Of a DNA stretch of 64,000 bases, positions 28,020 to 52,700 are shown piece after piece (position 1 is the stretch's first letter; each line of letters starts with the position of its first letter). A program made the translations under genes and the position numbers. The stretch spans positions 96,001 through 160,000 of the forward strand of contig CAVWIH010000014.1 in assembly GCA_963755025.1 (NCBI GenBank), given 5' to 3'. Below the pieces are notes generated by a model. It saw only the letters and a list, made by a program, of their open reading frames with translations. It was not told the origin of the DNA and did no database searches. This stretch comes from an uncultured Actinomycetes bacterium (lineage in GTDB: Bacteria; Actinomycetota; Thermoleophilia; UBA2241).

Positions 28020-28381
28020 GAGGACTCCGCTTTCTGGGTGCTGGATGGTCGGACAGTGCCGAAGGGGGATGGCCCCGCGCGCGGCCCGGGCGGCCACGCC
28101 ACCTCGAGCCTTCGTGGCTCTTTCCCGCTCGCGCGAGTTCATAACGCCGCGCCGCGGTCGTGGCCGTCACCGCCCAGCGGGGCGATGGCCGGCGGTCCGC
28201 GCGGGCCCGCGAGCCGGCCGGCGAGGGCGTCGCAGGCTCCCCAACACTGGACGAACACCCCTGCGAGCCTGTTGTCTACTACCTACCGATTCACTGGCCC
28301 GCTTGCAGGAGCCTGCCTGAACGGGTGTCCGCAGGGGCTAACGAGGGTAGCCAGAGCCGAGTCTGGCACAGGGGGTCGAGC

Positions 28382-28798
28382 GTGGGGTCGAGTGTCGAGG
28401 CCATCAGCGGAGCCGGATGGCCGTTTCTCGTGTACGGCGTACTCGTCGTCATCATCGCGGCGAGCATCGTCGGCATCGCGGCCGTCCTTGGTCAGAGGCA
28501 TCGTGACCTGACGACCGGTGAGCGCTACGAATCCGGCCTTCCCCAAGCCGGCCCGCTGCCCCGGCGCTTCTCCATCGAGTTCTACCAGATCGCCGTCTTC
28601 TTCGTGGTGTTCGACCTCGAAGCGGTGTTCATCTTCGCCTGGGCGGTAGCCCTGCGCGACGTGGGCTGGCGCGGCTACGCCGAAGCGCTGACCTTCATCG
28701 TGCTGCTGCTCGCCGGCCTGGTCTACCTGTGGCGCCTGGGGGCGCTCGACTGGGGCACGGGCGCGCGACTGCGCGGCAAGCGCCGCCGGGCGCGGTGA
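28382..28798 (+). CDS. nuoA: NADH-quinone oxidoreductase subunit A
   Basis: YESG, FSIEFYQIAVFFVVFDLEAVF, GALDW; start approximate. Confidence 0.92.
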   Translation: MGSSVEAISGAGWPFLVYGVLVVIIAASIVGIAAVLGQRHRDLTTGERYESGLPQAGPLPRRFSIEFYQIAVFFVVFDLEAVFIFAWAVALRDVGWRGYAEALTFIVLLLAGLVYLWRLGALDWGTGARLRGKRRRAR

Positions 28799-30724
28799 TG
28801 GCGCGCCTCCCCCGCTTCGCGCGCCTCGCCGCGCTGCCCGTCGTGGCCGCGGTCGCCTTGGCGATCGTGCTGCCCGGCGTGGTCAAGGCGGCCGACCTCG
28901 AGCCCCACCCCGACGAGCGCGGCCAGCCCTGCGGGCCTGGCGGCCTCGCCCGGTACGGCGGCGACCCCGGCCCATCTCGGCGAGCCCCGCGCCGGCCGCT
29001 TCGTCGACGCCTTTGCCGGGCTCGGGCGCGGCCATCTTCGCCGCCAACTGCTCGGGCTGCCACGGCGACCACGGCCAGGGGCTGCATCGGCCCCAGCCAG
29101 CAGGCCGACGCGTTCCCCAGCCTCGTCGCCGGCATGGTCCGGCGCGGCGGCATCTCGATGCCGGCCTTCCGCCAGTTCTCGCCGGCGCAGGTCGCCGCGG
29201 TCTCGAGCTTCGTCGCCACGCAGATCGCCGACTCCCGCCGCCCGCACCGCGACCATCGCCGAGGGCGGTGCAGCTCTTCCGCCTGTACTGCTCGGGCTGC
29301 CACAGCTCGACCGGGCGCGGCGGCGCCCTGAGCCAGGGCCGCAACGCGCCGTCGCTGGCCGATTCCCCGCCGCCGAGGCGCTCGCCGCCATGATCCTGGG
29401 CCGCGGCAACATGCCGAACTTCGCCGGGACGACCTTCAACGTGCGTCAGCAGGCCTCTGTGGCGCTCTACGTCGAGACACTCCAGAAGCCGCCCTCGCCG
29501 GGCGGCTGGGGGCTGGGCTACATCGGGCCGGTCACCGAAGGCCTCGCCTGCTTCGCCGCGCTCGGCCTGATCGTGCTGCTCACCGTGTGGCTCGCCTGGG
29601 GCAAGGGCCAGGTCAAACCGGCCGCGCCCGGCACGGCTGCGGTGCTCCTCGCCGGCGCCGGCGACGCGCCCGGCACCGAAGCTCCGCTCGTCGCCGCCTC
29701 TGGCCCCGCGGCGGCCCCCGAAGCTCCGCCTGGCGCCGCCACCGGACCCGCGGCCGCAGTCGATCCGGCGCCCAGCGCCGGCCGCCCCGCGCTCGCACCG
29801 CCCGGCTGGCCGGCCGCGATCGGCCTCCTCGTCGCCATCGCCGGCGCCGTCGGCTTCGTCACCTTCTTCATCCTCGGCAACAGCGCGCAGAGGCTCGGCG
29901 GCACCATGGCGCTCTCGTTCCTGGGCCTCGGCTTCGCCCTGGCCTACTGGGGGCGCGACCTGACCAGCGACGAGGTCGAAGTGGGCCACTACCCGCTGCC
30001 GCCCGAGCCGGCCTCCGCGCCGGTCGCGACGCTCGTACCGGCGCCGGCGCCGGCCGCCGCGGCGCCTGCCGGCGAGACCGTCGCCGCCACGACCGGTCTG
30101 GCGCCCGCCCCGGCCGACACCGTGTCGGCCGAGCTGGGCGACGAGCTGGCGCGCAGCACGAACGTGCTCACCAGGCGGCGCTTCCTGACGGTGCTGCTGG
30201 TCGGCGCCGCCACCGTGGTCGGGCTCAGCCAGCTCGCCCTGGCCGCCTCGCTGGGGCCCAAGTCGCGCGGCCTGCGCTCGACGGCCTGGCGGCCCGGCGT
30301 GCGCCTGGTCACGACCGACGGTGTGCCCATCTCCCACACCGCGCTGCAGGGCGGCGGCGTGATCGTGGCCTTCCCCGAAGGCCACCTCGAAGCCGCCGAC
30401 TCGCAGGTCGCCCTGCTGCACCTGACCGACATCGCGCCCCTGGCCGGCCGCGAGTCGTGGAGCCCGGAGAGCTTCTTCGCCTACTCACGCGTGTGCACCC
30501 ACGCGGGCTGCGCCGTCGCCCAGTACGAGGACGAGTCCCAGGTGCTGCTCTGCCCCTGCCACCAGTCGACCTTCGACCTGCGCCAGGGCGCCCGGCCGAT
30601 CAGCGGCCCCGCCGCGCGCCCGCTGCCGCAGCTGCCGCTGGCCATCGACGCCGAGGGCTACCTGATCGCCCAGAGCGACTTCGACACACCAATCGGCCCC
30701 GGATTCTGGAACCTCTATGCCTGA
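28798..30724 (+). CDS. qcrC-qcrA: Diheme cytochrome c (QcrC), frameshifted several times, running in frame into the Rieske subunit (QcrA) of a cytochrome bcc complex
   Basis: CSGCH at 29049 and 29289, FRLYCSGCHSSTGRGGALSQGRNAPSL, NMPNF, PGGWGLGYIGPVTEG+TM; then TM helices, RRRFL, CTHAGC and CPCHQSTF in ORF 29390..30724. Confidence 0.85.
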
Positions 30725-32084
30725 CCGCAAGCTCCAGCGCTCGCTCACCCACGGCTTCCGCCTGCCGCGCGACCGCTACCGCCGGGTGGCGGGCTGGCTC
30801 GACAACACCACAGGCGGCGGCGGCCTCATCCGTCGCGAGCTGCGCCACATCTTCCCCGACGACTGGTCGTTCTTCTTTGGCGAGATCGCCCTGTACTGCT
30901 TCGTCGTCCTGATCGCCACGGGCGTCTACCTGTGCCTGTTCTTCAAGGCCTCCGCGGCGCCCACCGTCTACCTGGGCAGCTACCGGCCGCTGCACGGGGT
31001 CGGCGTGTCCGAGGCCTACAACTCGGTGCTGCGCCTGAGCTTCGATACGCGCGCCGGCCTCGTCATACGCCAGGTGCACCACTGGGCCGCCCTGATCTTC
31101 GCCGCCGCGCTCGCCCTGCACCTCTTCCGCATGTTCTTCACCGGCGCCTACCGCCGGCCGCGGCGCCTCAACTGGGTGATCGGGCTGAGCCTGCTGAGCC
31201 TGGTCTTCGTCAACGGCGTGTTCGGCTACTCGCTGCCCGACGACCTGCTGTCGGGCACCGGCCTGCGGATCGCCTACTCGATCACGCAGTCGATGCCGCT
31301 CATTGGCCCGAACCTCGCCTCGCTGCTGTTCGGCGGCGACTTTCCCTCTACCGGGCTGATCCCGCGCATCTACGCGGCGCACATCCTGCTGGTGCCGGGA
31401 GCCATCGCCGGACTGCTCGGCGCGCACATGGCCATGCTCTGGATCCAGCGCCACACGCAGTACCGCGGCGCCGGCCGCAGCGACCGGGTCATCGTCGGCA
31501 CGCCCATGGTGCCGGCCTACGCGCTGCGCACCACCGGCTTTCTGCTGCTGCTCACCGGCATGCTCACGGCGCTGGGCGGTTTCTTCCAGATCAACCCGGT
31601 CTGGCTCTACGGCCCCTACCACCCGTGGGACTCGACGAGCTTCGCGCAGCCCGACTGGTACACGGGCTGGCTCGAGGGCGCGGTGCGCATGACCCCGGCC
31701 TGGGACATCCACATCGGCGGCTTCCTGCTGCCCGGGCTGTTCTGGCCGGCGGCCCTGCTGCCCGGCGTCATCGCCGGCTTCCTCTTCATGTGGCCGTGGC
31801 TCGACGCCGTGGTGCTGCGCGACAACGACATCCACAACGTGCTGCAGACGCCGCGCGACCGTCCCGGGCGCACGGCCATCGGCGCCGGCATCCTGACCTT
31901 CCTCATCATGCTGCTGGTGGCGGGCGGCGACGACGTGTTCGCGGCCACCTTCCACTGGCACCTGCCGACGCTCCTCGCCGTCATGCAGGGGCTCACGCTC
32001 GGCCTGCCCTTCGTGATCGGCGGCCTCGCCTACGCCGTCTTCCGCCACCGTCATGCGGCCGTCGCCGACGAGGTCACTCCGTGA
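30717..32084 (+). CDS. qcrB: Cytochrome bcc complex cytochrome b subunit
   Basis: FPDDWSFFFGEIALY, RQVHHWAA, HLFRMFFTGAYRRPR, GYSLPDDLLSG, heme His in AAHI and GAHM, Qo motif QPDWY. Confidence 0.93.
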   Translation: MPDRKLQRSLTHGFRLPRDRYRRVAGWLDNTTGGGGLIRRELRHIFPDDWSFFFGEIALYCFVVLIATGVYLCLFFKASAAPTVYLGSYRPLHGVGVSEAYNSVLRLSFDTRAGLVIRQVHHWAALIFAAALALHLFRMFFTGAYRRPRRLNWVIGLSLLSLVFVNGVFGYSLPDDLLSGTGLRIAYSITQSMPLIGPNLASLLFGGDFPSTGLIPRIYAAHILLVPGAIAGLLGAHMAMLWIQRHTQYRGAGRSDRVIVGTPMVPAYALRTTGFLLLLTGMLTALGGFFQINPVWLYGPYHPWDSTSFAQPDWYTGWLEGAVRMTPAWDIHIGGFLLPGLFWPAALLPGVIAGFLFMWPWLDAVVLRDNDIHNVLQTPRDRPGRTAIGAGILTFLIMLLVAGGDDVFAATFHWHLPTLLAVMQGLTLGLPFVIGGLAYAVFRHRHAAVADEVTP

Positions 32085-32989
32085 GCTGGGTGGCCACAGC
32101 AGGCCTCGGTCGCCGGCCGGTCACGGTGGGCGCCGCGCGCGGCGCCCTGGTGCTGCGCGTCGCCAAACCGCGCATCGTGGCGCTGTTCGCCCTGACCGTG
32201 CTGGTGGCGACCCTGCTCGCCGGCCCTGTGGGGGTGCTCCTCACCGCCGCCATCGTGGCGTCGTCGGCCCTCACGGTCGCCGGCGCCGCCGCGCTCAACA
32301 ACTACCTTGAACGCGACCTCGACGCCCGCATGGCGCGTACGCTCCGCCGGCCCACGGCGAGCGGCGCGCTCGCGCCGCGCGCCGCGCTCACGGCCGGGTT
32401 GCTCGCCACCGGCGGCGGCGTGGCCGCGGTCTGGGCCTGCGGCGGCCCGGCGGCGGCGGCCTTCGCGGCAGGCGGCGCCTTCTACTACGTGGTCGTCTAC
32501 ACGCTGCTCATCAAGCCGCGCACCGTGTTCAGCTCGCTGCCGGGCGGTCTCACCGGCGTGTTCCCCGCCCTGATCGGCTGGACGGCGGCCGGCGGCGGCC
32601 TGTCGGGACGCATCGTCTTCGCGTGCGCGCTGATCGCGGTCTGGTCGCCGCCCCACTTCTGGGCGCTGTCGTACGCCCTCTCCGACGAGTACGTGGCCTC
32701 GGGCATCCCCACGCCCGCCGTAGCCCTCGGTGAGCGCGCGGCGACGCGCCTGATCTTCGCGGCCGGCGCCGTCCTGGTCGCCCTCTCGCTGGCGCCGAGC
32801 GTCGCCGGTCTCTACCCGCCCACCTTCCTGGTGACGGCGGTGCCCGCGGGTGTCGCCCTGCTGGCCGTGGCCGGCACGCTCGCGCTGCGGCGCGACAGGG
32901 CGACGGCCCTGCTGCTGCACAAGCTCTCGGGGCCCTACCTCGCCGCCCTGCTCGTCGCGATGGTGATCGAAAGGCTGGCGCGACCATGA
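32081..32989 (+). CDS. ctaB: Protoheme IX farnesyltransferase (heme O synthase)
   Basis: KPRIV, NNYLERDLDARMARTLRRP, YTLLIKPRT, WSPPHFWAL, DEY. Confidence 0.9.
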   Translation: MSWVATAGLGRRPVTVGAARGALVLRVAKPRIVALFALTVLVATLLAGPVGVLLTAAIVASSALTVAGAAALNNYLERDLDARMARTLRRPTASGALAPRAALTAGLLATGGGVAAVWACGGPAAAAFAAGGAFYYVVVYTLLIKPRTVFSSLPGGLTGVFPALIGWTAAGGGLSGRIVFACALIAVWSPPHFWALSYALSDEYVASGIPTPAVALGERAATRLIFAAGAVLVALSLAPSVAGLYPPTFLVTAVPAGVALLAVAGTLALRRDRATALLLHKLSGPYLAALLVAMVIERLARP

Positions 32990-33011
32990 CCGGCGGGAGG
33001 GAGGAGCACTC

Positions 33012-34034
33012 ATGACCGAGGACAAGCGGACCAACCGGCACACAGGGCGCACCATCGTGCTGCGCGCGCTGTTCCTCGTCGCCGTCGCCGGCGGCCTCGC
33101 GGGCTGCTCCAGCCACTCGCCGAGCATGTTCCAGACACGCAGCGCCGGCGCCCACGACATCGCCGTACTCACCTATACGATGTTTGCCATCCTGAGCCTG
33201 GTGCTGATCACGGTCTGGTCACTTCTTGCCTACATCATCGTTCGGTTTCGCAAGCGACCCGAGTCCGAGGCCAGTCGCACGAGGGGGAACATGACCATCG
33301 AGGTGCTCTGGACGGCGATTCCAGCAATCATCGTCGCCGTCCTGTTCGCCCTCACCATGCAGACTACAGGCAAGCTCATCGGGGGACCGGACGCCGTCGA
33401 CCTCACGGTCACCGGCCACCAGTGGTGGTGGCAGGTCAAGTATGCCGGCGCAGACTTCGAGACCGCCAACGAGATCCACCTGCCGTCCGGTACCGCGATC
33501 ACGGCGGACCTGCTGTCCGCCGACGTCATTCACCAGTTCTCGTGTCCGCAGGTCACCGGCAAGGTGCAGATGATCCCCGGCACGGTGAACCACGTGAGTT
33601 TCTTGCCGATCCGCGCCGGCACGTACCTCGGTGTGTGTGCGCAGTTCTGCGGCGTCCAGCACGCCCACATGCACTTTCTGTTGATCGTGCAGCCGCAGGC
33701 GGAGTTCACGACGTGGTTCGACAATCAGATGAAGCCGGCGGTCAAACCGACGGGGCCGCCGGCCATCGCCGGCGCCACCGCCATGACCGGCCTGCCGTGC
33801 TCGAGCTGCCATACCATCCGCGGGACCAGCCTGACTGGCACCTATGGTCCCGACCTGACTCACCTGGCAAGCCGCACCTCGATCGCCGCCGTGACCCTGT
33901 CGAACACGCCCGCGAACCTGCGGCGCTGGATCGCCGACCCGAACGACGTCAAGCCAGGCGTGCTCATGCCGACCGTGCCGGTCACACCGCAGACGCTCGA
34001 TGAAATAGTCGCCTACCTGGAAGAGCTGAAATGA
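33012..34034 (+). CDS. ctaC: Cytochrome c oxidase subunit II (lipoprotein, CuA) with a C-terminal cytochrome c domain
   Basis: Lipobox LAGC, EVLWTAIP, GHQWWW, DVIH, CAQFCGVQHAHM, CSSCH...GPDLTH...KPGVLMP. Confidence 0.92.
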   Translation: MTEDKRTNRHTGRTIVLRALFLVAVAGGLAGCSSHSPSMFQTRSAGAHDIAVLTYTMFAILSLVLITVWSLLAYIIVRFRKRPESEASRTRGNMTIEVLWTAIPAIIVAVLFALTMQTTGKLIGGPDAVDLTVTGHQWWWQVKYAGADFETANEIHLPSGTAITADLLSADVIHQFSCPQVTGKVQMIPGTVNHVSFLPIRAGTYLGVCAQFCGVQHAHMHFLLIVQPQAEFTTWFDNQMKPAVKPTGPPAIAGATAMTGLPCSSCHTIRGTSLTGTYGPDLTHLASRTSIAAVTLSNTPANLRRWIADPNDVKPGVLMPTVPVTPQTLDEIVAYLEELK

Positions 34035-36499
34035 CCGACGTCACCCTCCCCCGCGACTTCGCGTACGCCCGCAGCGAGCCGCACGGCCTCGCCGCTTGGC
34101 TCATGGGCACCGACCACAAGCACGTCGGCCTCCAATATATGGCGACCTCGCTCGTGTTCTTCTGTATCGGGGCGGCCATCGCCATCACGATGCGCACCCA
34201 GACTATCGTGCCCGGCATGAAGTTGCTCTCCCCAGAAGCCTACAACCGGGCCTTCTCGGTCCACGGCACGACCATGATCTTCCTGTTTGCCATGCCCGTC
34301 CTGATCGGTTTTGCCAACTACATCGTGCCACTTCAAATCGGTGCCCGCGACATGGCCTTCCCGCGTCTGAACGCGCTCAGCTATTGGCTGTTCTTGTTCG
34401 GCGGCCTCCTCTTGTACTCGGGCTTTCTTTACGGCGGCGTGCTCGACACCGGCTGGTTCAGCTACGCCCCGCTCACTGAACGAGCCTTTTCGCCCCACGA
34501 CGGGGTCAGCGTCTGGATCGTAGCGCTCACCATGCTCGGCATCTCTTCGGTGGCCGGCGCCATTAACTTCATCATGACGATGATACGGCTGCGTGCTCCC
34601 GGCATGAGCTGGCTGCGCATGCCGCTCTTCTGCCAAGCGACGTTCGTCAACTCATTCCTCATCCTGTTCGCCTTTCCCAGCCTCACGGCGGCGGTGGGCT
34701 TGCTCTATCTTGACCGCTTCTACCACACGGGCTGGTACAACCCCGCGCGCGGCGGCGACCCGATCATCTGGGAACACCTGTTCTGGTTCTTCGGCCACCC
34801 CGAGGTCTACATCCTCATTCTGCCGGCCTTCGGCATGATGAGTGAGATTGTGCCGATTTTCTCGCGCAAGCCGCTGTTCGGCCGAACGGCCATGATCATC
34901 AGCATCCTGGTCATCGGCTTTCTGAGCTTTCTCGTGTGGGCCCATCACATGTTCACGGCCGGCCTGCCGACCTACTTCAACACCTTCATGGCGGCCACCA
35001 GCATGCTGATCGCCATCCCGACCGGCGTGAAGATCTTCAACTGGCTGGCGACCATGTGGGGCGGCTCTCTGCGCTTTAAGACGCCCTTCCTATTTGCGTG
35101 CGGCATGATCGCCTTTTTTACGATCGGCGGCATCAGCGGCGTGCTGCAAGCCTCAGTTCCCTTCGACTGGCAGGTCAACCAGACGATGTTCATCGTTGCT
35201 CACCTGCACAACGTGCTGTTCGGGGGCACTGCCTTCATCGCCTTCGCCGCCGTCTACTACTGGTTCCCGAAGATGACCGGCCGCATGCTGTCAGACCGCC
35301 TGGGCAAATGGCACTTCTGGGTCATCTCGGTGGGCTTTCTGATGACCTTCATGCCGATGTACGGCCTCGGTCTTCTCGGCATGCCCCGCCACCAGTACAC
35401 CTACGCGGGCGATCTTGGCTGGAGCACGCTCGAGCTGATTTCCGGTGTCGGCGCCTACATCATCGGCGCCGGGATCGTCATCTTCATCGTCAACATCGTG
35501 CGCTCGCTGCTGGCCGGCGAGCCGGCCGGCGGCGACCCCTGGGATGCATGGACCCTCGAGTGGGCGACGAGCTCACCGCCGCCGCACGGCAATTTCGCCA
35601 CGTTGCCGGCCGTGGAGAGCGATCTGCCGCTCTGGGACATCAAGCACCCCGGCGAGCCGCTGGCACATATCGCCAGCGACAGGGGATCCGTCAATGAGGT
35701 GCCCGCCGAGGTGGCGGCGGTCCACGCCGAGCCTGCGCACGCCGACCACTGGACCAAGCTGCCTCTCCTGACCGCGATCGCCGTCCTTGTCGTGGGGATC
35801 GGCCTGCTTACCAGCTTGCTCGTATCGGTGCTCGGCATCGCGCTGCTCTTGATCCTTGCCGGCCTATGGATGTCGGCGCGCTGGACCGTGCCCGAACCGC
35901 CGGTCATGCCCCGGCAGCGGTTCACGGCGCTCGGCTCCGGCATCCTGCTGTTGGTCGGCTCGGAAACGGTCCTGTTCGGTGCGCTCGTCGGCGCCGACCT
36001 GCATCTGCGGGTCCACGGCAGCCTGACCCTGGGCATCCACGGCCGGCTGCCGACCACGCTGCCGATCGTCAACACTGTCATCCTCATGACCAGCGGGGTC
36101 GCCGCCCACTACGCTCTGACGAGCTACCGCAAGGGCCGGTTGGCCTGGTTCCGCGCCTACATTACGGCGACTGTCATCCTTGGCATCGCGTTTCTGAGCG
36201 GACAAGCCTGGGAGTACACGCATGCCGGATTCGGACTGTCGAGCGGGCTGACCGGAGAATCATTCTTCACGCTGACTGGTCTCCACGGCGCTCACGTCAT
36301 CGTCGGCATCCTGCTGCTCGTCTACCTGATGGTCCGTGCAGCCCACGACGGCCGGCGGCGACCGACCGAAGCAACCGGCGCCGCCGGCGCGATCGCCCGC
36401 GGCACCGGCACCGCCGGCATGGTCGAAGCGGCCGTCTACTACTGGCACTTCGTCGACGCCGTCTGGGTGGTCATCTTCGTCGTGGTCTACCTGCTATGA
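34031..36499 (+). CDS. ctaD: Heme-copper oxidase subunit I fused to a subunit III domain (A1 type)
   Basis: [44 protein letters not shown]; C-terminal [39 protein letters not shown]. Confidence 0.92.
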
Positions 36500-37158: not shown

Positions 37159-37170
37159 GGTGTAGGCGCC

Positions 37171-38931: not shown

Positions 38932-38938
38932 CGCCCGC

Positions 38939-40727: not shown

Positions 40728-40729
40728 CC

Positions 40730-43526
40730 GTGGCCACCGTCGCCATCACCATCGAGGGCACACCCTACGAGGTCGACGACACCCGCAACCTCCTCGACAT
40801 CTGCCTCTCGCTGGGCTACGACGTGCCCTACTTCTGCTGGCACCCCGCCATGGGTTCGATCGGCGCCTGCCGGCAGTGCGCGGTCAAGCTCTACTGGGAC
40901 GACGACGACGACAAGGGCGAGGTCGTGATGTCCTGCCTCACCCGCCCCCGCGCCGGCAACCGCGTGGCGATCTCAGACGACGAGGTCGTGCGCTTCCGCG
41001 CCCGCGTCATCGAGCTGCTCATGACGAGCCACCCCCACGACTGCCCGGTCTGCGACGAGGGCGGCGAGTGCCACCTGCAGGACATGACGGTGATGACCGG
41101 CCACGTGTACCGCCGCTACACCTACGCCAAGCGCACGTTCGAAAACCACGACCTGGGCCCGTTCGTGACCCACGAGATGAACCGCTGCATCCAGTGCTAT
41201 CGCTGCCTGCGGTTCTACGTCGACTACGCCGGGGGACACGACTTCGCCGCCTTCGGCCTGCGCAACGAGGTCTACTTCGGACGGCTGCGCGACGGCGCCC
41301 TCGACAGCGAGTTCAGCGGCAACCTGGTCGAGGTCTGCCCGGTCGGGGTCTTCGACGACAAGACCTTCGCCGCCCATTACACGCGCAAGTGGGACCTGCA
41401 GACCGCGCCCGCCGTCTGCCCCTACTGCGCGCGCGGCTGCAACATCATCGCCGGCGAGCGCTACGGCGAGCTGCGCCGCGTGCTCAACCGCTACAACGGC
41501 GAGGTCAACGGCTACTTCCTCTGCGATCGCGGACGCTACGGCTACGGCTCGGCCAACGTCGCCGAGCGCGTGCGGCAGCCGCTCGTCGGCCTCGCCGGCC
41601 TGTCGGCCAGCGAGCTCGTGCGCGGCCTCGGCGCGCGCCTCGAGTCGGCCCTCGGCGAGCGCCGCGTGGCCGTCGGGGCGCGGCCCCGCGTAGCGCGGCC
41701 GCGCCCGGTCGGCATAGGCTCGCCGCGCGCCTCGCTCGAGGCCAATTTCGCCCTCAAGCGCATGGTCGGCGACGACCGCTTCTTCCTGGGCATGGCCGAA
41801 GGCGAGCACACCCTGGTCGCACGCGCAGTCGAGCTGCTGCGCGCCGGCCCGTCGGCCACTCCCACGCTGCGCGACATCGAGGCCGCCGACCTCGTCATCG
41901 TGCTCGGCGAGGACCTCACCAACACCGCGCCCATGCTCGACTTCGCGGTGCGCCGCTGGGCGCGGCTGCGGCCGACCGGCGACGAAGAGCGCCTCGGCAT
42001 CGCGCGCTGGAACGACGCCGGCGTCGGCATGGTCAAAAAGGAGGAGCCCAAGGCCCTGTGGATCGCCGCCACGCACGCCGGCAAGCTCGACGAGATCGCC
42101 GCCGAGGCCTGGCACGCGACGCCCGACGACCTCGCCCGCTTCACGCTGGCGCTGGCCGCGGCGCTCGCCCCGCAGCGCCGCCGGCGAGCGGCCAAGGCGC
42201 CGCTCTCAGACCAGGCCGCCCGCATCGAACGCTACGCGGCGGCCCTGCGCACGGCCGAGCGCCCCGTGGTGATCTCGGGCGTGAGCTGCGGCAGCGAGGC
42301 GCTGCTCGAGGCCGCGGCCGCCCTGGCGCGGGCTCTGCCGGGCCCGGCCGCCGCCGCGCCGCTCGCCCTGGTCGTGCCCGAGGTCAACACGCTCGGCCTC
42401 ATGCTGCTCGGCGGTCGGCGCCTGTCCGAGGCCTTCGACCTGGCCGCCGCGGGCGACGTCGAGGTCGCCCTCGTCATCGAGAACGACCTGTACCGGCGGG
42501 CACCGGCGGCCCCGGTCGACGCCTTCCTCAAAGCTTGCGGCACGGTGATCGTCGTCGACCACGTGAAGACCGCGACAGGGGCGGCGGCCGCCGCCGTGCT
42601 GCCGGCGGCCTCGTGGGCCGAGGGCACCGGCACGTTCGTCAGCCTCGAAGGACGCGCCCAGCGCTCGCTGCAGGTCATGCCGGCGCCGCGCCCGGTGCAG
42701 CCCACCTGGCGCTGGCTCTCGGCCTTGGCGGCGGCCGCGCGGCTGCCCGTGGGCCAGGACTGGATCACGCTCGACCACCTGCTCGACGAGCTTGCCCGCG
42801 AGCGGCCCGACCTGGCGCCGGCCACCCGCGCCGCGCCGCCGGCCGACGCCCGCTTCGTCGACATGAAGATCCCGCGCGAGGCGAGCCGCGCGAGCGGGCG
42901 CACCGCCATGCACGCCGACGTCTCGGTGTTCGACGCGCCGCCCCCCGCCGACCGCGACGCGCCCATGAGCTTCTCGATGGAGGGCTTCCCCGGCCGGCCG
43001 CCGGCGCCGCTGATCGCCCGCTACCACGCCCCGCACTGGAACTCGGTGCAGGCGCTCAACAAGTTCCAGGAAGAGATCGCCGGCCCGCTGCGCGGCGGCG
43101 ACCCCGGCGTACGGCTCATCGAGCCGCCGGTCGCCGACGCCGACGACGCCGGCGCGACCGGCGCGCGCCCTCTTGGCCGGCGCGGCGCCGGGCATGACCC
43201 CGGCGCCCGGCAGGCTGCTGGCCGTGGCCCGCCACCACATCTACGGCTCCGAAGAGCTCAGCATGCTGTCGCCGCCGGTCGCCGGACGCGCCCCCCGGCC
43301 CTATCTCGCCCTGGGACCGCTCGACGCGGCGCGGCTCGGCGCGCGCGAGGGCCGGCCGCTGGCCGTGGCGCTGCACGGCGCCGGCGAGCCGCGCCTCAGC
43401 CTGCCGGTGCGCATCGACGATTCGCTGCCCGAGGGCCTCGCCGGCCTGCCGGTGGGCCTGCCGGGCCTGCCCTTCCTCGACCTGCCGGCCGAGCTCGAGA
43501 TCGACGAGGGGGGCGGCCGTGCCTGA
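40730..43526 (+). CDS. nuoG: NADH-quinone oxidoreductase subunit G; frameshift near 43170
   Basis: FCWHP...GACRQC (N1b), HPHDCPVCDEGGEC (N5), CIQCYRC (N4), CPYCARGC...CDRGR (N7); C-terminus HIYGSEELS in ORF 43173..43526. Confidence 0.93.
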
Positions 43527-44538
43527 GGCCCTGCGCTCCACGCTCGACCTTGGCGGCGCGGCGCCGCTCGTGGCGGTCTCCGGGCTCACGGTGCTCTACG
43601 ACCTCGTGATCGTGCTGGTCGTGCTGGCCGGCGCGCTCTCCATAGCCGCCGGCCTGACCTGGTTCGAGCGCCGCCTGCTGAGCTTCTTCCAGGACCGCCT
43701 GGGGCCCAACCGCGTGGGTCCCGCCGGCCTGCTGCAGCCGCTTGCCGACACCGTCAAGATGTTCACCAAAGAGGACTGGATACCGCCCTTCGCCGACCCC
43801 TGGCTGTTCGTGCTGGCCCCGACGATCATCATCGTCTCGGTGCTGCTGGCGTTCGTCATAGTGCCGGTGAGCGGCTCGTTCGTGGTGGCCGACACCAACA
43901 TCGGCCTGCTGTTCTTTCTGGGCATGTCGTCGCTCGGGGTGTACAGCGTGGCGCTCGCCGGCTGGTCGTCGGCCAGCAAGTACTCGATCATCGGCGGGCT
44001 GCGCGCCGCCGCCCAGATGATGAGCTACGAGGTCTTCATGGGCGTCGCGCTGACCGGCGCGGTGCTGATGGCCGGCTCGTTCGACTTGAACAAGATCGTC
44101 GAAGGCCAGCGCGGCCTGTGGTACGTCATTCCGCAGTTCCCGGGCTTTCTCGTCTTTCTGCTGGCCGGCTTCGCCGAGATGCGGCGCATACCGTTCGACC
44201 TGGTCGAAGCCGAGAGCGAGCTCGTGGCCGGCTACCGCACCGAGTACTCCGGCATGAAGTCCGGCATGTTCCTGGTGGGCGAGTACCTCGGCATGACGCT
44301 GATCGCCGCCCTGATCGTCACCATCTACTTCGGCGGCTGGCTGGGGCCGGGACTGCCCAACTTCGTGTGGTTCCTGCTCAAGGTGTTCGTCTTCATCGTC
44401 TTCTTCATCCTGGTGCGCGGCACGCTGCCGCGGCCACGCTACGACCAGCTCATGGACCTCGGCTGGAAGATCCTGCTGCCGCTCTCGCTGGTCAACCTGG
44501 CCGTCACCGGGGCCATCATCCTGGCGGTGCAGAAATGA
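43519..44538 (+). CDS. nuoH: NADH-quinone oxidoreductase subunit H
   Basis: ERR...[46 protein letters not shown]. Confidence 0.95.
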
Positions 44539-45047
44539 GCTACCTGCGCGGCCTGTGGATCGTCTTTCTGCACCTCTTCAAGCGCACCGACACGATCGAG
44601 TACCCCAAGGAGATGCTCTACCTGCCGCCGCGCTACCGCGGCCGCATCGTGCTCACGCGCGACCCCGACGGCGGCGAGCGCTGCGTGGCCTGCTACCTGT
44701 GCTCCGTGGCTTGCCCGGTCGACTGCATCGCCCTGCAGGCCACCGAGGACGAGAGCGGGCGCCGCTACCCGGCCTGGTTTCGCATCAACTTCTCGCGCTG
44801 CATCTACTGCGGCTTCTGCGAGGAGGCCTGCCCCACCTACGCCATCCAGCTCACGCCCGACGCCGAGATGAGCGAGTACCTGCGCCCCAGCATGGTCTAC
44901 GAAAAGGAAGACCTGCAGATCGCGGGCACCGGCAAGTACCACGACTACAACTTCTACCGGGTCGCCGGCCTCGCCATAGCCGGCAAGGGCAAGGGCGAGG
45001 CCGAGCACGAGGCCCCGCCGGCCGACCCGCGCCAGCTGCTGCCATGA
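44535..45047 (+). CDS. nuoI: NADH-quinone oxidoreductase subunit I
   Basis: [12 protein letters not shown] and [12 protein letters not shown]. Confidence 0.95.
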
Positions 45048-45063
45048 GAAACCGTCGCACGCC

Positions 45064-45804
45064 ATGACCGTGGTCTTCTACATAGCCGGCGCGATCGCCC
45101 TGCTCTCGACGCTGCTCGTCGTGACGTGCCGCAACACGATCCACGCCCTGCTCTACCTCGTGCTCTCGCTGCTCGCCGTCGCCATCGTCTTCTACACGCT
45201 GGGGGCGCCCTTCGTGGCCGCCCTCGAGGTGATCGTCTACGCCGGCGCCATCATCGTGCTGTTCCTCTTCACGGTGATGCTGCTGAACGTGGGCCGCGAG
45301 GCCGAAGGCGACGAGGCGCACCGCCTGCGCGCGATCAGCTTCCTGTGGCCCGGCCTGCTGGCCGCGGCGCTGCTGGTCGAGCTCGGCGTGGCCATCGCGA
45401 GCGGCCCTTCGGCCCAGGTCGGCGCTCGCGCCGTGGCGCCGCGCGCCGTCGGTATAGCCCTCTACGGGCCCTACGCCATCGGCGTCGAGCTGGCCTCGAC
45501 GCTGCTGCTCGCCGCCCTGATCGGCGCCCGCCACCTGGGTCAGCGCCAGGCCGAACAGAGCTTTGCCGACCTGGCGCTGGCGGCCGACACGGTCGCGTCG
45601 CCCCCCGGCGGCGACGACCGGCAGCTCGTGGCGGTCGGCGCGCCGGCGGCCGAGGCGGCGGCGCCCGGCGGCGAGCCCGGCGAGGCATCCGCCGACGACA
45701 GGTCGGGCGGCGCGGTGGGCACGGCCGGCGAAGCCCCGCCGCAGGCGCCCGACGACGCGCCCGCGCCGGGCGGCACCAGGTTCTGGCGAAAGGGAGACGA
45801 CTGA
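45064..45804 (+). CDS. nuoJ: NADH-quinone oxidoreductase subunit J with a long low-complexity C-terminal tail
   Basis: [35 protein letters not shown]. Confidence 0.92.
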
Positions 45805-46112
45805 TGGCCCACGTGCCTTTCGAGTACGGGCTCTACCTGGCGGCCGCGCTGTTCCTGGTCGGCCTGGTCGGCGTGCTGGTGCGCCGCAACCTGATCTTCG
45901 TGCTGGCCTCGATCGAGATCATGCTCAATGCCTCCGGCCTCGCCTTTGTGGTGGCCGGCTCGCGCTGGGGACAACCCGACGGCCAGGTGATGTTCGTCTT
46001 CATCCTCGCCATGGCGGCCGCCGAAGTGGCCGTGGGCCTGGCGCTGGCGCTGCTGTTCCGCCGCGCCTTCGGCTCGCTCGACATCGACAAAGCCGACCAG
46101 ATGCGAGGCTGA
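45804..46112 (+). CDS. nuoK: NADH-quinone oxidoreductase subunit K
   Basis: [26 protein letters not shown]. Confidence 0.95.
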
Positions 46113-46113
46113 C

Positions 46114-48000
46114 GTGCTGCACCTGCTCTTCCTCGTGCCCCTGCTGCCCTTCGCCGGCTTCGTCATTCTGGCACTGGGCGGGCGGCGCCTGTCGCACGGC
46201 GGCGTCGCCGCCGTGGGCGCCGGCTCGGTCGGCCTGGCCGCCCTCGTGGCCCTCGCCGTCTCGATCGACTTCATGGCGAGCCCGCCGGCCGGCCACGCCT
46301 TCGACCAGGTCCTGTGGACCTGGTTCAGCGTGGCCGGCCTCAAGGTGCAGGTCGCCCTCTACCTCGACCCGCTGGCGGTCTGCTTCATCCTGATCGTGGC
46401 CTGCGTGGGGTTCCTCATCCACCTCTACTCGGTCGAGCACATGGCGCACGACGACGGCTTCGCCCGCTTCTTCGCCTACATGAACCTCTTCGTGGGCTTC
46501 ATGCTCGTGCTCGTGCTGGCCGACAACCTGCTGCTGCTCTACCTGGGCTGGGAGGGCGTCGGCCTGTGCAGCTACCTGCTCATCGGCTTCTGGTACAAGC
46601 ACTGGTACAACGGCTACGCCGCCCGCAAGGCGTTCGTCGTCACGCGCATCGGCGACACCGCCATGATCGTCGGTCTGTTCTTGCTGTTCACGCAGCTCGG
46701 CACGCTGCAGATCCAGCCGCTCATGGCGCGCGCCGCGGCGGCCTGGCCGCAGGGCTCCGCCCTGCCGGTGGCCGCCGCCCTGCTGCTGCTCGGCGGCGCC
46801 GTGGGCAAGTCGGCCCAGCTGCCGCTGCAGACCTGGCTGCCCGACGCCATGGCCGGCCCCTCGCCGGTCAGCGCCCTCATCCACGCGGCCACCATGGTCA
46901 CCGCCGGCGTCTACCTGATCGCCCGCACCAACGTGCTCTTCGACCTGGCGCCGGCGGCGCGCACCACCGTGGCCGTGGTGGGCGCGGCGACGCTCCTCTA
47001 CGCCGGGGTCAGCGCCCTGTTCCAGGTCGACCTCAAGCGCATCCTCGCCTACTCGACGATCAGCCAGGTCGGCTACATGTTCCTCGCCCTCGGCGTGGGC
47101 GCCTGGTCGGCCGGCATCTTCATGTTCATCACCCACGCCTTCTTCAAGGCCCTGCTGTTCCTCTCGGCCGGGGTGGTGATCGAGGCCATGGACGACGAGC
47201 ACGACATCTTCAAGATGGGCGGCCTGCGCACGCGCCTGCCGGTCGCCTTCTGGACGTTCCTCATAGGCGCCGCGGCCCTCGCCGCCCTGCCCATCGTGAC
47301 GGCCGGCTTCTACAGCAAGGACCTCATCATCGACCGCGCCCTGCAGTCGACCGAAGGCGGTTTCTGGCTGTGGATCGCGGGCATCGTGGGCTCGCTGCTC
47401 ACCGGCCTCTACGCCTTCCGCGCGGTGTTCGTGGTGTTCTTCGGCCCGGTGCGCACCGAGCCTCGGCCCGGTTTTCGTACCGGCCTTGCGGTGCGCCTGC
47501 CGCTCTTCGTGCTGGCCTTCCTGGCCGTCGCCGGCGGCCTCATCGACATTCCGCGCGGCTGGGCCCACCTGCAGAAGCTCGACGACTTCCTGGCGCCCGT
47601 GCTGCCCGCCACGCCGCTGCGCCACGGCGGCCTGGCGGGCGACCTGTGGACGACCTTCGTGCCGGGCGTCGTCGCCCTGGCCGGCATAGGCCTCGCCTGG
47701 CTGCTCTACGAGCGCCGCCGGCAGCTGGCCGCCGAAGCCGACACCTCGGTGGCCGCGCGCTACTTCCTGGGCGGCTGGGGCTTCGACTGGCTCTACCGCT
47801 ACGCCTTCGAGGTGCCGTTCCTGTGGTTCGCCCACGTGAGCCGCAACGACCTGTTCGAGCCGCCCGTCGACGCCATCGCCCACCTGGCGCGCGCCGGCTG
47901 GCGCGGCCTGTCGGCCACCCAGAACGGCCTCGTGCGCTCGTACGTCTTCGTGATCGGCTTCGGCGTACTGGTCGGCGTGTTGCTGGTGGTGCTGCGATGA
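46114..48000 (+). CDS. nuoL: NADH-quinone oxidoreductase subunit L
   Basis: GWEGVGLCSYLLIGFW, KSAQLPLQTWLPDAMAGPSPVSALIHAATMV, HAFFKALLF. Confidence 0.95.
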   Translation: MLHLLFLVPLLPFAGFVILALGGRRLSHGGVAAVGAGSVGLAALVALAVSIDFMASPPAGHAFDQVLWTWFSVAGLKVQVALYLDPLAVCFILIVACVGFLIHLYSVEHMAHDDGFARFFAYMNLFVGFMLVLVLADNLLLLYLGWEGVGLCSYLLIGFWYKHWYNGYAARKAFVVTRIGDTAMIVGLFLLFTQLGTLQIQPLMARAAAAWPQGSALPVAAALLLLGGAVGKSAQLPLQTWLPDAMAGPSPVSALIHAATMVTAGVYLIARTNVLFDLAPAARTTVAVVGAATLLYAGVSALFQVDLKRILAYSTISQVGYMFLALGVGAWSAGIFMFITHAFFKALLFLSAGVVIEAMDDEHDIFKMGGLRTRLPVAFWTFLIGAAALAALPIVTAGFYSKDLIIDRALQSTEGGFWLWIAGIVGSLLTGLYAFRAVFVVFFGPVRTEPRPGFRTGLAVRLPLFVLAFLAVAGGLIDIPRGWAHLQKLDDFLAPVLPATPLRHGGLAGDLWTTFVPGVVALAGIGLAWLLYERRRQLAAEADTSVAARYFLGGWGFDWLYRYAFEVPFLWFAHVSRNDLFEPPVDAIAHLARAGWRGLSATQNGLVRSYVFVIGFGVLVGVLLVVLR

Positions 48001-49610
48001 TCCTTGTCGCGCTGCTCGCCTGGCCCTTCGTCGCCGGCATCGCCGCCTGGATCGCCGGCCGCCGCCGCCCCGACCTCGCCCGCTGGGTGTCGGTCCTGGC
48101 CATGGCCGCCGGCCTCGTCGCGGTGGTCGTCGAGTGGATCGCCAAGGCGCCCGACTTCTCGCTGTCCGGTCACGGCCCCTTCGTGGCGAGCGTGCACGTC
48201 GCCTGGGTGCCGCAGCTGGGCATCAGCTTCTTCGTGGCCGCCGACGGCTTCAGCCTGCTCATGGTCGCGCTGTGCTACGCCCTCGGCCTGCTCGCCGTGC
48301 TGTCGTCGTGGCACGACATCACCGAACGGGTCGGCTTCTTCCACTTCATGCTGCTCTGGACGATCGCGGCGCTGGTCGGGGTGTTCACTGCCCTCGACCT
48401 GTTCCTCTTCTACTTCCTGTTCGAGATGATGCTCGTCCCCATGTTCTTCCTGATCGCGCTGTGGGGCCACGAGCGGCGCGTCTACGCCGCCATCAAGTTC
48501 TTCCTGTTCACGCAGATCGGCGGCCTGCTCATGCTGGTCTCGATCCTCGCCCTGTACGTCATCCACGGCCGCCAGACCGGCGTGTACACCTTCGACTACC
48601 TGCGCTTGCTCGGCACGCACCTCTCGATGGCCACGGCGACCTGGCTCATGCTCGGCTTCTTCGCCGCCTTCGCCGTGAAGCTGCCCGCCGTGCCGCTGCA
48701 CACCTGGCTGCCCGACGCCCACACCCAGGCGCCGACCGCCGGCAGCCTCGTGCTCGCCGGCCTGCTCATCAAGATCGGCGCCTACGGGATGATCCGCTTC
48801 ATGGTGCCGCTGTTCCCCCAGGCCACGTTCCGCGCGGCGCCGGTGTTCATGGGCCTCGCCGTGCTCGGTATCCTCTACGGCGCGGCGCTGGCCTTCGCCC
48901 AGAAGGACCTCAAGCGCATGGTGGCCTACACCAGCGTGAGCCACATGGGCTTCGTGCTGCTGGCCATCATGGCGTGGAACACGCTCGCCCTGCAGGGCGC
49001 GGTGCTCGAGATCGTCTGCCACGCCTTCTCGACCGGCGCCCTGTTCGCCATCGTCGGCCTCATGCAGGAGCGTCTGCACACCCGCGACATCGACAGGATG
49101 GGCGGTTTGTGGCTCACGGCGCCGCGCCTGGGCGCGGTGACGCTCGTCTTCGCCCTGGCCAGCCTGGGACTGCCCACCCTGGGCAACTTCGTCGCCGAGT
49201 TCCTCATACTCATCGGCTCGTGGCGCGTGAGCGAACCGGCTACGGTGCTGGGCGCGGTGGGTCTGGTGGCCGCCACGATCTACTCGCTGTGGCTCGTGCA
49301 GCGCGTCTTCCAGGGGCGTGAGGCGCCGACCGTGACCATGCCCGACCTCACGGTGCGCGAGGGAGCGATGCTGGCCTTCATGGCGGCCCCGCTGCTCTGG
49401 CTCGGCGTCTACCCGCAGCCCATCTTCAACACCGTGCGACCGGGCCTCGCCGCCCTGCAGCAGCGCGCCGTGCGTGCGCCGGCGACGACGCCGTCCGCCT
49501 CTATCAGGCCGCCCACCGTGGCGGCCGCGGCCGCGCTGCGCGACCAGACCGCGCCCAAAGCGCCGGCGCCCGCCAGGGCGTCCGCGCCCACCGCCCGAGG
49601 CCTGCAGTGA
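47997..49610 (+). CDS. nuoM: NADH-quinone oxidoreductase subunit M
   Basis: FEMMLVPM, KLPAVPLHTWLPDAH, AYTSVSHMG, GLPTLGNFVAEF. Confidence 0.95.
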   Translation: MILVALLAWPFVAGIAAWIAGRRRPDLARWVSVLAMAAGLVAVVVEWIAKAPDFSLSGHGPFVASVHVAWVPQLGISFFVAADGFSLLMVALCYALGLLAVLSSWHDITERVGFFHFMLLWTIAALVGVFTALDLFLFYFLFEMMLVPMFFLIALWGHERRVYAAIKFFLFTQIGGLLMLVSILALYVIHGRQTGVYTFDYLRLLGTHLSMATATWLMLGFFAAFAVKLPAVPLHTWLPDAHTQAPTAGSLVLAGLLIKIGAYGMIRFMVPLFPQATFRAAPVFMGLAVLGILYGAALAFAQKDLKRMVAYTSVSHMGFVLLAIMAWNTLALQGAVLEIVCHAFSTGALFAIVGLMQERLHTRDIDRMGGLWLTAPRLGAVTLVFALASLGLPTLGNFVAEFLILIGSWRVSEPATVLGAVGLVAATIYSLWLVQRVFQGREAPTVTMPDLTVREGAMLAFMAAPLLWLGVYPQPIFNTVRPGLAALQQRAVRAPATTPSASIRPPTVAAAAALRDQTAPKAPAPARASAPTARGLQ

Positions 49611-51074
49611 ACGCCCGCGACACGATCACCCTGCTGCCCTTCATCGCGCTGACCCTGTCGGCGGTGATCGTCATGCTGGCCGGCACGTTCCACAGCAGCC
49701 ACCGGCTCACCGTGGGCCTCACGCTCGCCGGGCTCGTCTGGACCGGGGCCATGCTGCCCATCACCGCCGCGCGCGGCGGCCGCCAGGTCACCGCCCTGTT
49801 CCTGCTCGACGACTACACCCTGTTCTTCATGGGCCTGCTCGTGCTCACCACGGCCGGCGTCGTGCTCATCTCCTACGGCTATCTCGAGCGTCGCGAAGAG
49901 CACCCCCACGACTACTACACGCTGCTCCTGCTGGCCACGCTGGGTGGCGCCGCTCTCGTGGCCTCGACCCACTTCGCCTCGTTCTTCCTGGGCCTCGAAG
50001 TGCTCAGCGTGTCGCTGTACACGCTGATCGCCTACCCGCGCGCTGCGCGCCGGCTTCATAGAGGCCGGCGTGAAATACCTCGTGCTGGCGGCGGCCACGG
50101 CCGCGTTCCTGCTCTTCGGCATGGCGCTCGTCTACGCCGAGCTCGGCACCATGAGCCTGAACGCGTTCGCCCACCTGCACGTTACCGGCGGCGGGGCGGC
50201 CGAGACCTCGCTGCTCATCGGCGGCTTCGCCCTGATCATCGTGGGCATCGGCTTCAAGCTCGGCGTCGTGCCGTTCCACATGTGGACGCCCGACGTCTAC
50301 CAGGGCGCGCCCGCGCCGGTCACCGCGTTCGTGGCCACCGTGTCGAAGGGCGCCATGGTCGCCCTGCTGCTGCGCTACTTCCGTCAGGTGAGCCTGTCGC
50401 CCCACGACACGGTGTGGATCGTCTTCGCCATCATCGCCGCCGCCTCGATGATCGCCGGCAACCTCCTCGCCTTGCTGCAGGCCAACGTCAAACGGCTGCT
50501 GGCCTATTCGTCGATCGCCCATCTCGGCTACATCCTGGTCGCCTTCCTCGCCGTGGGCCGCACGGCGGCGGTCGCCGTGCTCTTTTATCTGGTGGCCTAC
50601 TTCGTCACCACGCTCGGCGCGTTCGGCATCGTCTCCGAGCTCTCCGGGGCCGAGGGCCGCGACGCCGACCGGATCGACGACTACCGCGGCCTCGGCGCCC
50701 GGCGTCCGCTGCTCGCCGCGACCTTCGCCGTGTCGCTGTTCTCGCTGGCCGGCATTCCGCTGACGGCCGGCTTTCTCGGCAAGTTCTACGTGGTGAACGC
50801 CGGCGCCGGCTCGCGACTGTGGTGGCTGCTCATCGTGCTCGTCGCCTCCAGCACGATCGGTCTCTACTACTACACGCGCATCGTCGTCGCCATGTACGTG
50901 CAGCAGCCCGCCGACGACCTTGTGGTGGACAGCTCGCCGGGCTCGCTCACGCTGGCCGGCAGCCGTGCCGGCGACGCCGTGCTGGTCGTCGTCACGGGCC
51001 TCGTCCTGTTCCTGGGTATCTATCCGTCACCACTCATCAGGCTGCTCGAGCACGTCGTGGCAGGACTGCCGTGA
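49607..51074 (+). CDS. nuoN: NADH-quinone oxidoreductase subunit N; frameshift near 50040
   Basis: FLGLEVLS in frame 49607; FKLGVVPFHMWTPDVYQGAP, LAYSSIAH, AGIPLTAGF in ORF 50070..51074. Confidence 0.93.
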
Positions 51075-52663: not shown

Positions 52664-52700
52664 CCGGGGCGCGGACCCACCTTCGAAGGGAGAACAGACG

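Follow-up and report, generated by a model that had tools for sequence, protein, structure and literature searches.

Complex III and IV genes interleaved between nuoA and nuoB in an uncultured Thermoleophilia family

The respiratory genes discussed here lie in a 64,000-nucleotide (nt) stretch of DNA (the window) from an uncultured Actinomycetes bacterium of the class Thermoleophilia (UBA2241; GenBank assembly GCA_963755025.1, contig CAVWIH010000014.1, positions 96,001 to 160,000 of the forward strand). Between positions 28382 and 51074, on the plus strand, 18 genes of one orientation fill 22.7 kb in the order nuoA, qcrC-qcrA fusion, qcrB, ctaB, ctaC, ctaD-ctaE fusion, nuoB, nuoCD fusion and nuoE to nuoN, as identified from Pfam and NCBIfam. 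A complex I operon is thus split after its first gene by the genes of complexes III and IV, and the order is stable over a clade. We consider the string to be real and conserved in its lineage, and most likely to form one operon, or a few overlapping transcription units, that would provide one co-regulated module from NADH to O2. All of the enzymes belong to known families; the architecture of the operon is apparently undescribed, and it comes with a traceable evolutionary series.

At the two places where complex I genes meet the intervening ones, stop and start codons overlap: as TGATG between nuoA and qcrC (28796-28800), and as ATGA between ctaD/E and nuoB (36496-36499). Overlaps of 1, 4 or 8 nt are found at 11 of the 17 junctions, and the remaining six gaps measure 1, 2, 7, 12, 16 and 22 nt, the start codons having been assigned from open reading frames (ORFs) and from alignment to the intact orthologues of a related genome (G010). 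A terminator scan of the string placed no terminator-like site at a junction between cluster genes. The scan returned 5 + 9 sites against 3.3 + 3.3 expected from shuffles; 13 of these 14 sites lie within coding sequence, and the other, on the minus strand, comes shortly after the nuoN stop (51122-51103). A preliminary description, made from the letters of the sequence, had given the same gene order, the same two overlaps to the nucleotide, mostly overlapping internal junctions and no terminator, and on all these counts the profile searches and scans bear it out. Since six other genes and 7.7 kb separate nuoA from nuoB, nuoA to nuoN do not form a contiguous operon. The overlaps, the gaps of at most 22 nt and the junctions free of terminators make one mRNA over the 18 genes likely.

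The interleaved order was found in 11 genomes from three genera of one Thermoleophilia family. Genus g1 comprises genomes G000 to G011, G000 being that of the window, and G013 and G021 belong to genera g3 and g11, respectively. Close orthologues of NuoB are present in 8 of the 11 other g1 genomes, and in each of the eight, ctaD/E directly precedes nuoB and nuoCD follows it. G003, G004, G006, G007, G010 and G011 show the complete order nuoA-qcrC/A-qcrB-ctaB-ctaC-ctaD/E-nuoB; in G001 and G008 the contig starts inside qcrC, which leaves the downstream junction alone visible. The genes of G021 are interleaved and all co-oriented, and those of G013 are interleaved, but ctaB, which lies there between qcrB and ctaC, is encoded on the other strand. 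Both G013 and G021 have an extra gene between ctaD/E and nuoB that is absent from this position in g1. By Pfam the G013 gene (L042:922-2325) is a CopC-CopD fusion; its G021 counterpart (L044 ~857-2282) is frame-broken and is likened to it by sequence and position alone. We read the product as a copper-handling protein and suspect that it supplies copper to the oxidase.

The source genome is a metagenome-type assembly of 39 contigs, 84% complete and 5% contaminated, and its junctions might for this reason be a chimera of separate nuo and qcr/cta loci. Both junctions recur, however, with conserved overlaps, in separately assembled genomes of 6 to 520 contigs at 60-97% protein identity. The overlap of the nuoA stop and the qcrC start is found in 9 of the 9 genomes that have this junction on a contig (TGATG in seven of g1, ATGA in G013 and G021), and an (A/G)TGA overlap between ctaD/E and nuoB is kept across g1 at CtaD/E identities down to 72%. 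Because the junctions recur in this way we reject a chimera, the probability of which is negligible. The search of genomes for nuoA followed by qcr/cta and nuoB had been proposed in the preliminary description, and its yield of 11 genomes in three genera speaks for a real arrangement.

In the window's own assembly some reading frames of the string are broken. Part of qcrC (~28894-29365) is spread over three frames; compared with G004, where the gene is one intact ORF (97% protein identity), there are about seven indels of 1-2 nt and a 43-nt difference in this part. Both CSGCH motifs of qcrC can be read in the DNA, in frames other than that starting at 28798. With the G010 proteins as tblastn queries, NuoG matches in two frames, the change falling between 43116 and 43249, and residues 1-145 of NuoN match in one frame and residues 147-487 in another. 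G010 and G004 have the qcrC/A orthologue as one uninterrupted ORF, and nuoG and nuoN are intact in G010. As the breaks are present in the deposited sequence and fall in three genes of one pathway, they could be taken for real mutations (about seven in qcrC, one each in nuoG and nuoN), in which case the cluster would be a decaying pseudo-operon in this genome. The same type of 1-nt indel, however, hits unrelated genes. Nine single-base insertions relative to G004 lie between 23060 and 24775, outside the respiratory cluster; an upstream ORF of 539 amino acids, intact in G004, is split over three frames at ~23050 and 23545; and the other nuo operon of the genome has frame breaks too, in nuoD, nuoH and nuoM. 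The indels are concentrated where G+C content is highest, an 11.4-kb part of the operon (29799-41199) is free of uncompensated coding indels, and the G+C content at third codon positions (GC3) stays within 0.86-0.97 for all genes of the string. Because unrelated genes are broken likewise, and because the indels fall in the G+C-richest stretches, we read the frame breaks in qcrC, nuoG and nuoN as consensus errors, which they probably are; decay of the cluster is unlikely. Over the region 22000-25200 as a whole, many single-base insertions relative to the near-identical G004 cluster in stretches of 75-77% G+C and break unrelated genes.

A dip in G+C content to 0.63 at 34-36 kb had raised the suspicion that the oxidase genes arrived recently by horizontal transfer. 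This was rejected because GC3 is 0.86-0.97 throughout and the dip is confined to codon positions 1 and 2. Also weighed against such an arrival was the distance from the oxidase genes of the only tRNA-like call in the window (at 15965), a 94-nt gene with an undetermined anticodon returned by ARAGORN.

The genome of the window holds two sets of nuoA and nuoB, and the interleaved one is a second complex I of the E. coli type (E-type). A Pfam family was found for each of the core subunits A, B, C, D, E, F, G, H, I, J, K, L, M and N. NuoC and NuoD form one ORF of 586 amino acids (PF00329, PF00346) that scores 898 bits with the C/D equivalog model NF008728 (cut-off 840). The comparison of E. coli with Thermus, mycobacterial and mitochondrial structures was made for NuoCD, NuoG and NuoL. 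NuoCD scores 730 bits with E. coli over its full length, 348 with Thermus Nqo4 and 268 with M. smegmatis NuoD; for NuoG the E. coli score is 774 and the next best 206, and for NuoL 547 and 368. The nuoA gene is 55-59% identical to the nuoA that adjoins an E-type nuoB in G014 and G039, and 38% identical to the other nuoA of its own genome. For homologues at 64-66% identity, the source names point to four other phyla (Gammaproteobacteria, Anaerolineales, Terriglobia and Nitrospirota). Going by these matches, the enzyme fits the laterally spread 'clade E' of complex I, as described in the part of Spero et al. that bears on it (PMC4859585). By the bit scores and NF008728, this is not the ordinary complex I of actinobacteria. 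The other complex I operon of the genome (G000:C14 ~55000-70050, minus strand, locus L052) lies upstream of the window; its apparent order is nuoA, B, C, D, H, I, E, F, L, M, N, and it gave no NuoG match with an E-type query.

The bcc genes, on the other hand, are actinobacterial. QcrB scores 522 bits with the model NF050120 (bc1_QcrB_actin; cut-off 500), and the fusion protein of G010 aligns to QcrC (residues 47-264) and to QcrA (residues 467-561) of solved Corynebacterium and Mycobacterium supercomplexes. The dihaem part has CSGCH at residues 84 and 163 (G010 orthologue) and scores 119 with NF050122, below the cut-off of 200; the Rieske boxes CTHAGC (CxHxGC) and CPCH (CxCH) are present, and the score with NF050121 is 214, below the cut-off of 275. 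In 6 of the 8 other g1 genomes a single open frame takes in both haem motifs and the Rieske box, whereas outside g1 qcrC and qcrA are separate and the Rieske frame is without CxxCH. Judged from these frames, QcrC-QcrA is a true gene fusion in the relatives and a novelty of g1.

The oxidase follows a different pattern. CtaC carries a cytochrome c domain (PF00034, residues 253-339) with CSSCH at residue 263; its best match in the PDB, 2yev_B, is aligned through residue 340, that domain included, and its score with subunit II is 197 bits for Thermus against ~54 for mycobacteria. CtaD/E combines PF00115 and PF00510 in one ORF of 822 amino acids, to which 2yev_A aligns over residues 24-821, and its subunit I motif is GHPEVY. 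The actinobacterial aa3 models failed: CtaC scores 128 with NF050117 (cut-off 250) and CtaD 611 with NF050116 (cut-off 880). With scores below the actinobacterial cut-offs, the enzyme is not the aa3 oxidase of the obligate actinobacterial bcc-aa3 supercomplex; its architecture is that of Thermus caa3. A haem A synthase (CtaA/COX15, PF02628) was found in none of the 12 g1 genomes, four of which are at least 90% complete, while in controls PF02628 matched in 7 of 14 named genomes, Thermus, Corynebacterium and five others. Given that the genus has no recognizable haem A synthase, 'caa3' is valid here for architecture only, and the haems of the oxidase are probably B/O instead of A. This oxidase is the sole COX1 found in the genome of the window; elsewhere that genome encodes another cytochrome b and also a cytochrome bd oxidase. 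By the profile and structure matches the module is a mosaic of an E. coli-type complex I, an actinobacterial bcc complex and a Thermus-style oxidase.

How the interleaving came about can be approached from the layouts of the same genes in the family, of which 89 genomes were searched. This type of NuoB is present in 50 of the 89 and this CtaD/E in 49, and the two gene sets occur head-to-head in at least 22 genomes, in tandem in 3 and interleaved in 11. In 22 genomes of genus g10, the match coordinates put nuoB at 5.6-6.2 kb from ctaD/E, the two being on opposite strands. Head-to-head operons were confirmed by gene maps of G080, G061, G067, G087 and locus L055, with nuoA-N facing away from qcrC-qcrA-qcrB-(ctaB reversed)-ctaC-ctaD/E across an intergenic region of 300-500 nt. 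The tandem order qcr-cta-nuoA-nuoB is that of G022, G064 and G095. In G014 the clusters are divergent and 6.7 kb apart, and in G077 ctaC-ctaD/E is displaced by several kb. Two copies of the head-to-head module are present in G078, on contigs C1 and C2.

In two other families of the class, none of the 10 E-type nuoA-nuoB loci examined has qcr/cta within ~11.5 kb upstream, and nuoA adjoins nuoB. A survey by QcrB alignment of species-representative genomes, which was not exhaustive and is not added to the counts above as its loci probably overlap the family genomes, gave the following among the 80 loci listed, mostly from Actinomycetota: 2 interleaved, 1 head-to-head, 1 with weak nuoL/M-like matches and 76 without a nuo gene within 10 kb. 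Just three of the 80, all of this family, have an E-type nuo operon beside qcrB. On this distribution, linkage of E-type complex I with the bcc and oxidase genes is a family trait, and interleaving is derived. Since the clusters were already neighbours, head-to-head or in tandem, the interleaved order is better described as a local rearrangement, in which nuoA, or else the cluster, shifted by 8 kb, than as the insertion from afar that the wording 'inserted between nuoA and nuoB' had implied.

Two trees bear on the number of origins. In a QcrB+CtaC+CtaD/E tree (20 genomes, 1621 columns, quick search, LG+G4), a branch with a Shimodaira-Hasegawa-like approximate likelihood ratio (SH-aLRT) support of 99 has the 11 interleaved genomes all together on the same side. 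In a NuoA+NuoB+NuoCD tree (quick search, rooted on G039), g1 and G021 are sister to the tandem group (SH-aLRT 93). We infer that interleaving had a single origin, in an ancestor shared by g1, g3 and g11; the second tree is compatible with this because its placement of G013, to which we return below, is weakly supported. The starting point would have been a bcc/oxidase cluster directly beside nuoA, in the tandem order qcr-cta-nuoA followed by nuoB. Tandem duplication of the qcr-cta-nuoA segment, then loss of the first qcr-cta copy and of the second nuoA copy, would leave nuoA-qcr-cta-nuoB. Later steps may have been a flip of ctaB to the operon strand (g1 and g11), loss of copCD (g1) and fusion of qcrC with qcrA (g1). 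The tandem genome G064 (C20, L137; 68% complete) is assigned to g10, yet its module groups with genus g6 in both trees; either the module was transferred or the contig is mis-binned.

How might the string work? A promoter in the 240-nt region upstream of nuoA would drive it, and translation of successive genes on the mRNA would be coupled through the overlaps of stop and start codons. The products, a 13-gene complex I, a bcc complex, a haem O synthase and an A-family oxidase, would then be made in fixed proportion. Electrons would pass from NADH through complex I to menaquinone, from menaquinol to the bcc complex, and by way of the two QcrC haems and the cytochrome c domain of CtaC to CuA and the binuclear centre, haem O being supplied by CtaB. 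Co-transcription, translational coupling and electron path are all deduced here from gene order and domain content.

Several observations weigh against this picture, or against parts of it. In the assembly of the window qcrC, nuoG and nuoN are not intact reading frames. The haem A synthase is not found in 12 of 12 g1 genomes. The NuoA+NuoB+NuoCD tree sets G013 apart from the other interleaved genomes, with the divergent group, although the fork is an open one (SH-aLRT 85). Promoters may lie inside coding sequence. Because ctaB is reversed in G013, nuoA-qcrC-qcrA-qcrB and ctaC...nuoN must be separate units there; the interleaved order therefore predates a single operon and does not require one. 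The single co-regulated module of the preliminary description stays plausible, but without the notion that one mRNA is inherent in the interleaved order. Finally, the pattern of presence and absence across the family, taken up below, is weak evidence for function, given the physical linkage of the genes and the kinship of the genomes.

One may go further in discounting the order and regard it as a neutral by-product of local rearrangement, with several promoters and, apart from the fact that the two clusters were neighbours before, no functional meaning. Three layouts of the same gene sets do coexist in one family, and G013 requires at least two units. By the title of a 2022 report by Oppermann et al., nuo gene order is reportedly not needed for E. 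coli complex I to assemble, which would suit a neutral origin as well. Neutrality, however, does not readily account for a nuoA/qcrC overlap kept in every genome that shows the junction, nor for an (A/G)TGA overlap at ctaD/E-nuoB kept in g1 as CtaD/E diverges. With ctaB on the operon strand and gaps of at most 22 nt, the g1 string resembles consolidation into one unit, not drift. We regard neutrality as rather unlikely, and retain the co-regulated module as the probable reading.

The opposite extreme is that the three complexes are physically joined in a I-III-IV respirasome, the interleaving on one mRNA serving co-translational assembly and a fixed stoichiometry. They are indeed encoded in one tightly packed, overlap-coupled string, and through three layouts within the family the two gene sets have stayed linked. 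The fusions (QcrC-QcrA, CtaC-cytochrome c, CtaD-CtaE) can be seen as a trend to a hard-wired electron path, but they are confined to the path from III to IV, and in G013 the string is interrupted by the opposite-strand ctaB. For NuoA (ND3), the subunit whose gene is set apart, we know of no contact between complexes I and III in mitochondrial respirasome structures. The title of Oppermann et al., if it reflects the content, counts against a respirasome too. There are precedents: bcc-aa3 supercomplexes of actinobacteria are solved structures, as their PDB titles state, and a I-III-IV supercomplex is reported for Paracoccus denitrificans in the section of PMC8361435 that mentions it. Taken together, a joined respirasome is improbable. 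Still bolder is the idea of an obligate NADH oxidase supercomplex, its three complexes being translated next to one another from a single mRNA; the move of nuoA, the fusion of QcrC with QcrA and the ctaB flip would then be successive hard-wiring steps. On the genes at hand it is quite improbable; if true, it would be the first respirasome with a stoichiometry set by gene order. The view that we prefer is a module joined by its regulation.

Regulation of the whole string may begin in a leader upstream of nuoA. Alignment of 9 upstream regions together with motif scans revealed a box, AACACTGGACGAA, at 28243-28255 and a hairpin, GCCAGA-N6-TCTGGC, at 28350-28367, just 5' of a G-rich ribosome-binding site; box and hairpin were found solely upstream of nuoA in genus g1. 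No known RNA element was found there in Rfam at E <= 1. The hairpin is invariant, so covariation lends it no support. As a conserved leader this could be a place at which the entire string is regulated. A scan for sigma-70-like promoters gave 0 sites in both halves, which is uninformative at 72% G+C in an actinobacterium.

The 240-nt region separates nuoA from a divergent gene for a transporter of the major facilitator superfamily (MFS). In G004 this gene, directly upstream of nuoA here, is missing at the same place and ~150 nt stand instead; its Pfam match spans the first 139 of 347 profile positions, and a frame break is possible. Downstream, a Ser/Thr protein kinase gene with a C-terminal DUF1269 begins 40 nt past nuoN behind an AAGGAG site. 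Its GC3 of 0.78 suggests frame errors, and it is not clearly orthologous to the gene that follows nuoN in G010. Coordinates of all features are collected in Table 1.

Table 1. Features of the interleaved respiratory string and its surroundings (positions in the window)
Feature	Position	Strand	Basis or remark
tRNA-like gene	15965-16058		ARAGORN
MFS transporter gene	26322-28142	-	Pfam
Conserved leader upstream of nuoA	28243-28367	+	Alignment of 9 upstream regions, motif scans
nuoA	28382-28798	+	Pfam PF00507, 1.1e-27; E. coli-type complex I subunit A
qcrC-qcrA fusion (dihaem cytochrome c + Rieske)	28798-30724	+	CSGCH x2 in DNA, Rieske domain; frame broken ~28894-29365
qcrB (cytochrome b, actinobacterial type)	30717-32084	+	Pfam; NCBIfam bc1_QcrB_actin
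ctaB (haem O synthase)	32081-32989	+	Pfam UbiA; TIGR01473 208.6 bits, slightly below cut-off 210.3
ctaC (oxidase subunit II + C-terminal cytochrome c domain)	33012-34034	+	Pfam COX2_TM, COX2, Cytochrom_C
ctaD-ctaE fusion (oxidase subunits I + III)	34031-36499	+	Pfam COX1, COX3; TIGR02891 674 vs cut-off 671
nuoB	36496-37158	+	Pfam; start overlaps ctaD/E stop
nuoCD fusion	37171-38931	+	Pfam; NF008728
nuoE	38939-39403	+	Pfam, NCBIfam
nuoF	39396-40727	+	Pfam, NCBIfam
nuoG	40730-43526	+	Pfam; frame change between 43116 and 43249
nuoH	43519-44538	+	Pfam, junction sequence
nuoI	44535-45047	+	Pfam, junction sequence
nuoJ	45064-45804	+	Pfam, junction sequence
nuoK	45804-46112	+	Pfam, junction sequence
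nuoL	46114-48000	+	Pfam
nuoM	47997-49610	+	Pfam
nuoN	49607-51074	+	Pfam on 3' part; frame change ~50042-50045
Ser/Thr protein kinase gene	51115-53256		C-terminal DUF1269

Not all members of the family have the module. A COX1 match at E <= 1e-20 was found in none of 31 of the 89 genomes, and these include G020, G024, G051, G062, G065, G070 and G016, which are 97-100% complete. Read by eye, 30 of these 31 are also without this NuoB, and 49 of the 58 COX1-bearing genomes have it. The module thus behaves as an optional unit for respiration with a haem-copper oxidase, as far as its distribution can tell; the pattern is weak functional evidence because joint loss is to be expected of linked genes in any case and kindred genomes do not count as independent samples. 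The idea of a portable aerobic-respiration cassette, raised in the preliminary description, gains some support to this extent, oxidase and complex I being jointly present or absent across the 89 genomes.

The carriers are uncultured soil-type actinobacteria, and the module marks those members of an abundant, uncultured Thermoleophilia family that are able to respire O2 via a haem-copper oxidase. With sister lineages that keep the likely intermediate layouts (head-to-head and tandem), the family offers a rare natural series for the effect of gene order on the assembly and dosage of large membrane complexes. At 22.7 kb the module is also a compact candidate for heterologous expression of a path from NADH to oxygen. 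More generally, its mosaic nature shows that respiratory chains can be built from parts of different ancestry and then consolidated, here apparently without haem A.

No description of the order nuoA-qcr-cta-nuoB or of a QcrC-QcrA fusion was found in the full-text literature, subscription journals and supplements being outside the search, and where a prokaryote-wide survey of complex I (PMC12361115) uses the relevant terms the interleaved order is not mentioned. Within the same class, the cultured Gaiella occulta likewise has complex I, bc1 and cytochrome c oxidase, but at separate loci that are not interleaved: its nuo genes are 14 consecutive locus tags, with bc1 and cox elsewhere, according to the relevant part of PMC6741124.

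The module can be compared, part by part, with well-studied systems. It resembles the E. coli nuo operon in its NuoCD fusion, its 13 nuo genes and its best solved matches; unlike in E. coli, nuoA is parted from nuoB-N by six bcc/oxidase genes, and the host is a high-G+C actinobacterium that presumably uses menaquinone. A second complex I beside a different one is also a feature of Rhodobacter sphaeroides. The QcrB type, the dihaem QcrC and the multi-helix Rieske protein QcrA are those of the actinobacterial qcrCAB genes and the bcc-aa3 supercomplex (III2IV2) of Corynebacterium and Mycobacterium. The differences are that QcrC and QcrA are one polypeptide in g1, that the genes lie inside a nuo operon, and that the partner oxidase is not of the aa3 type and has its own cytochrome c domain.

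In the oxidase, the fusion of subunits I and III and that of subunit II with cytochrome c recall the caa3 enzyme of Thermus thermophilus (2YEV), the chains of which, 2yev_A and 2yev_B, are the top full-length matches. It differs from that enzyme in coming from a genus in which no haem A synthase was found. It differs also in its GHPEVY motif, which we take to hold the D-channel glutamate of A1-type oxidases, Thermus caa3 being presumably A2. As for the chain as a whole, Paracoccus denitrificans is another bacterium in which complexes of these three types make up an NADH oxidase chain, with the genes for I, III and IV presumably at separate loci. The I-III-IV supercomplex of that organism (Stroh et al., 2004, as cited in the part of PMC8361435 concerned) is a biochemical association, whereas here the link is genetic.

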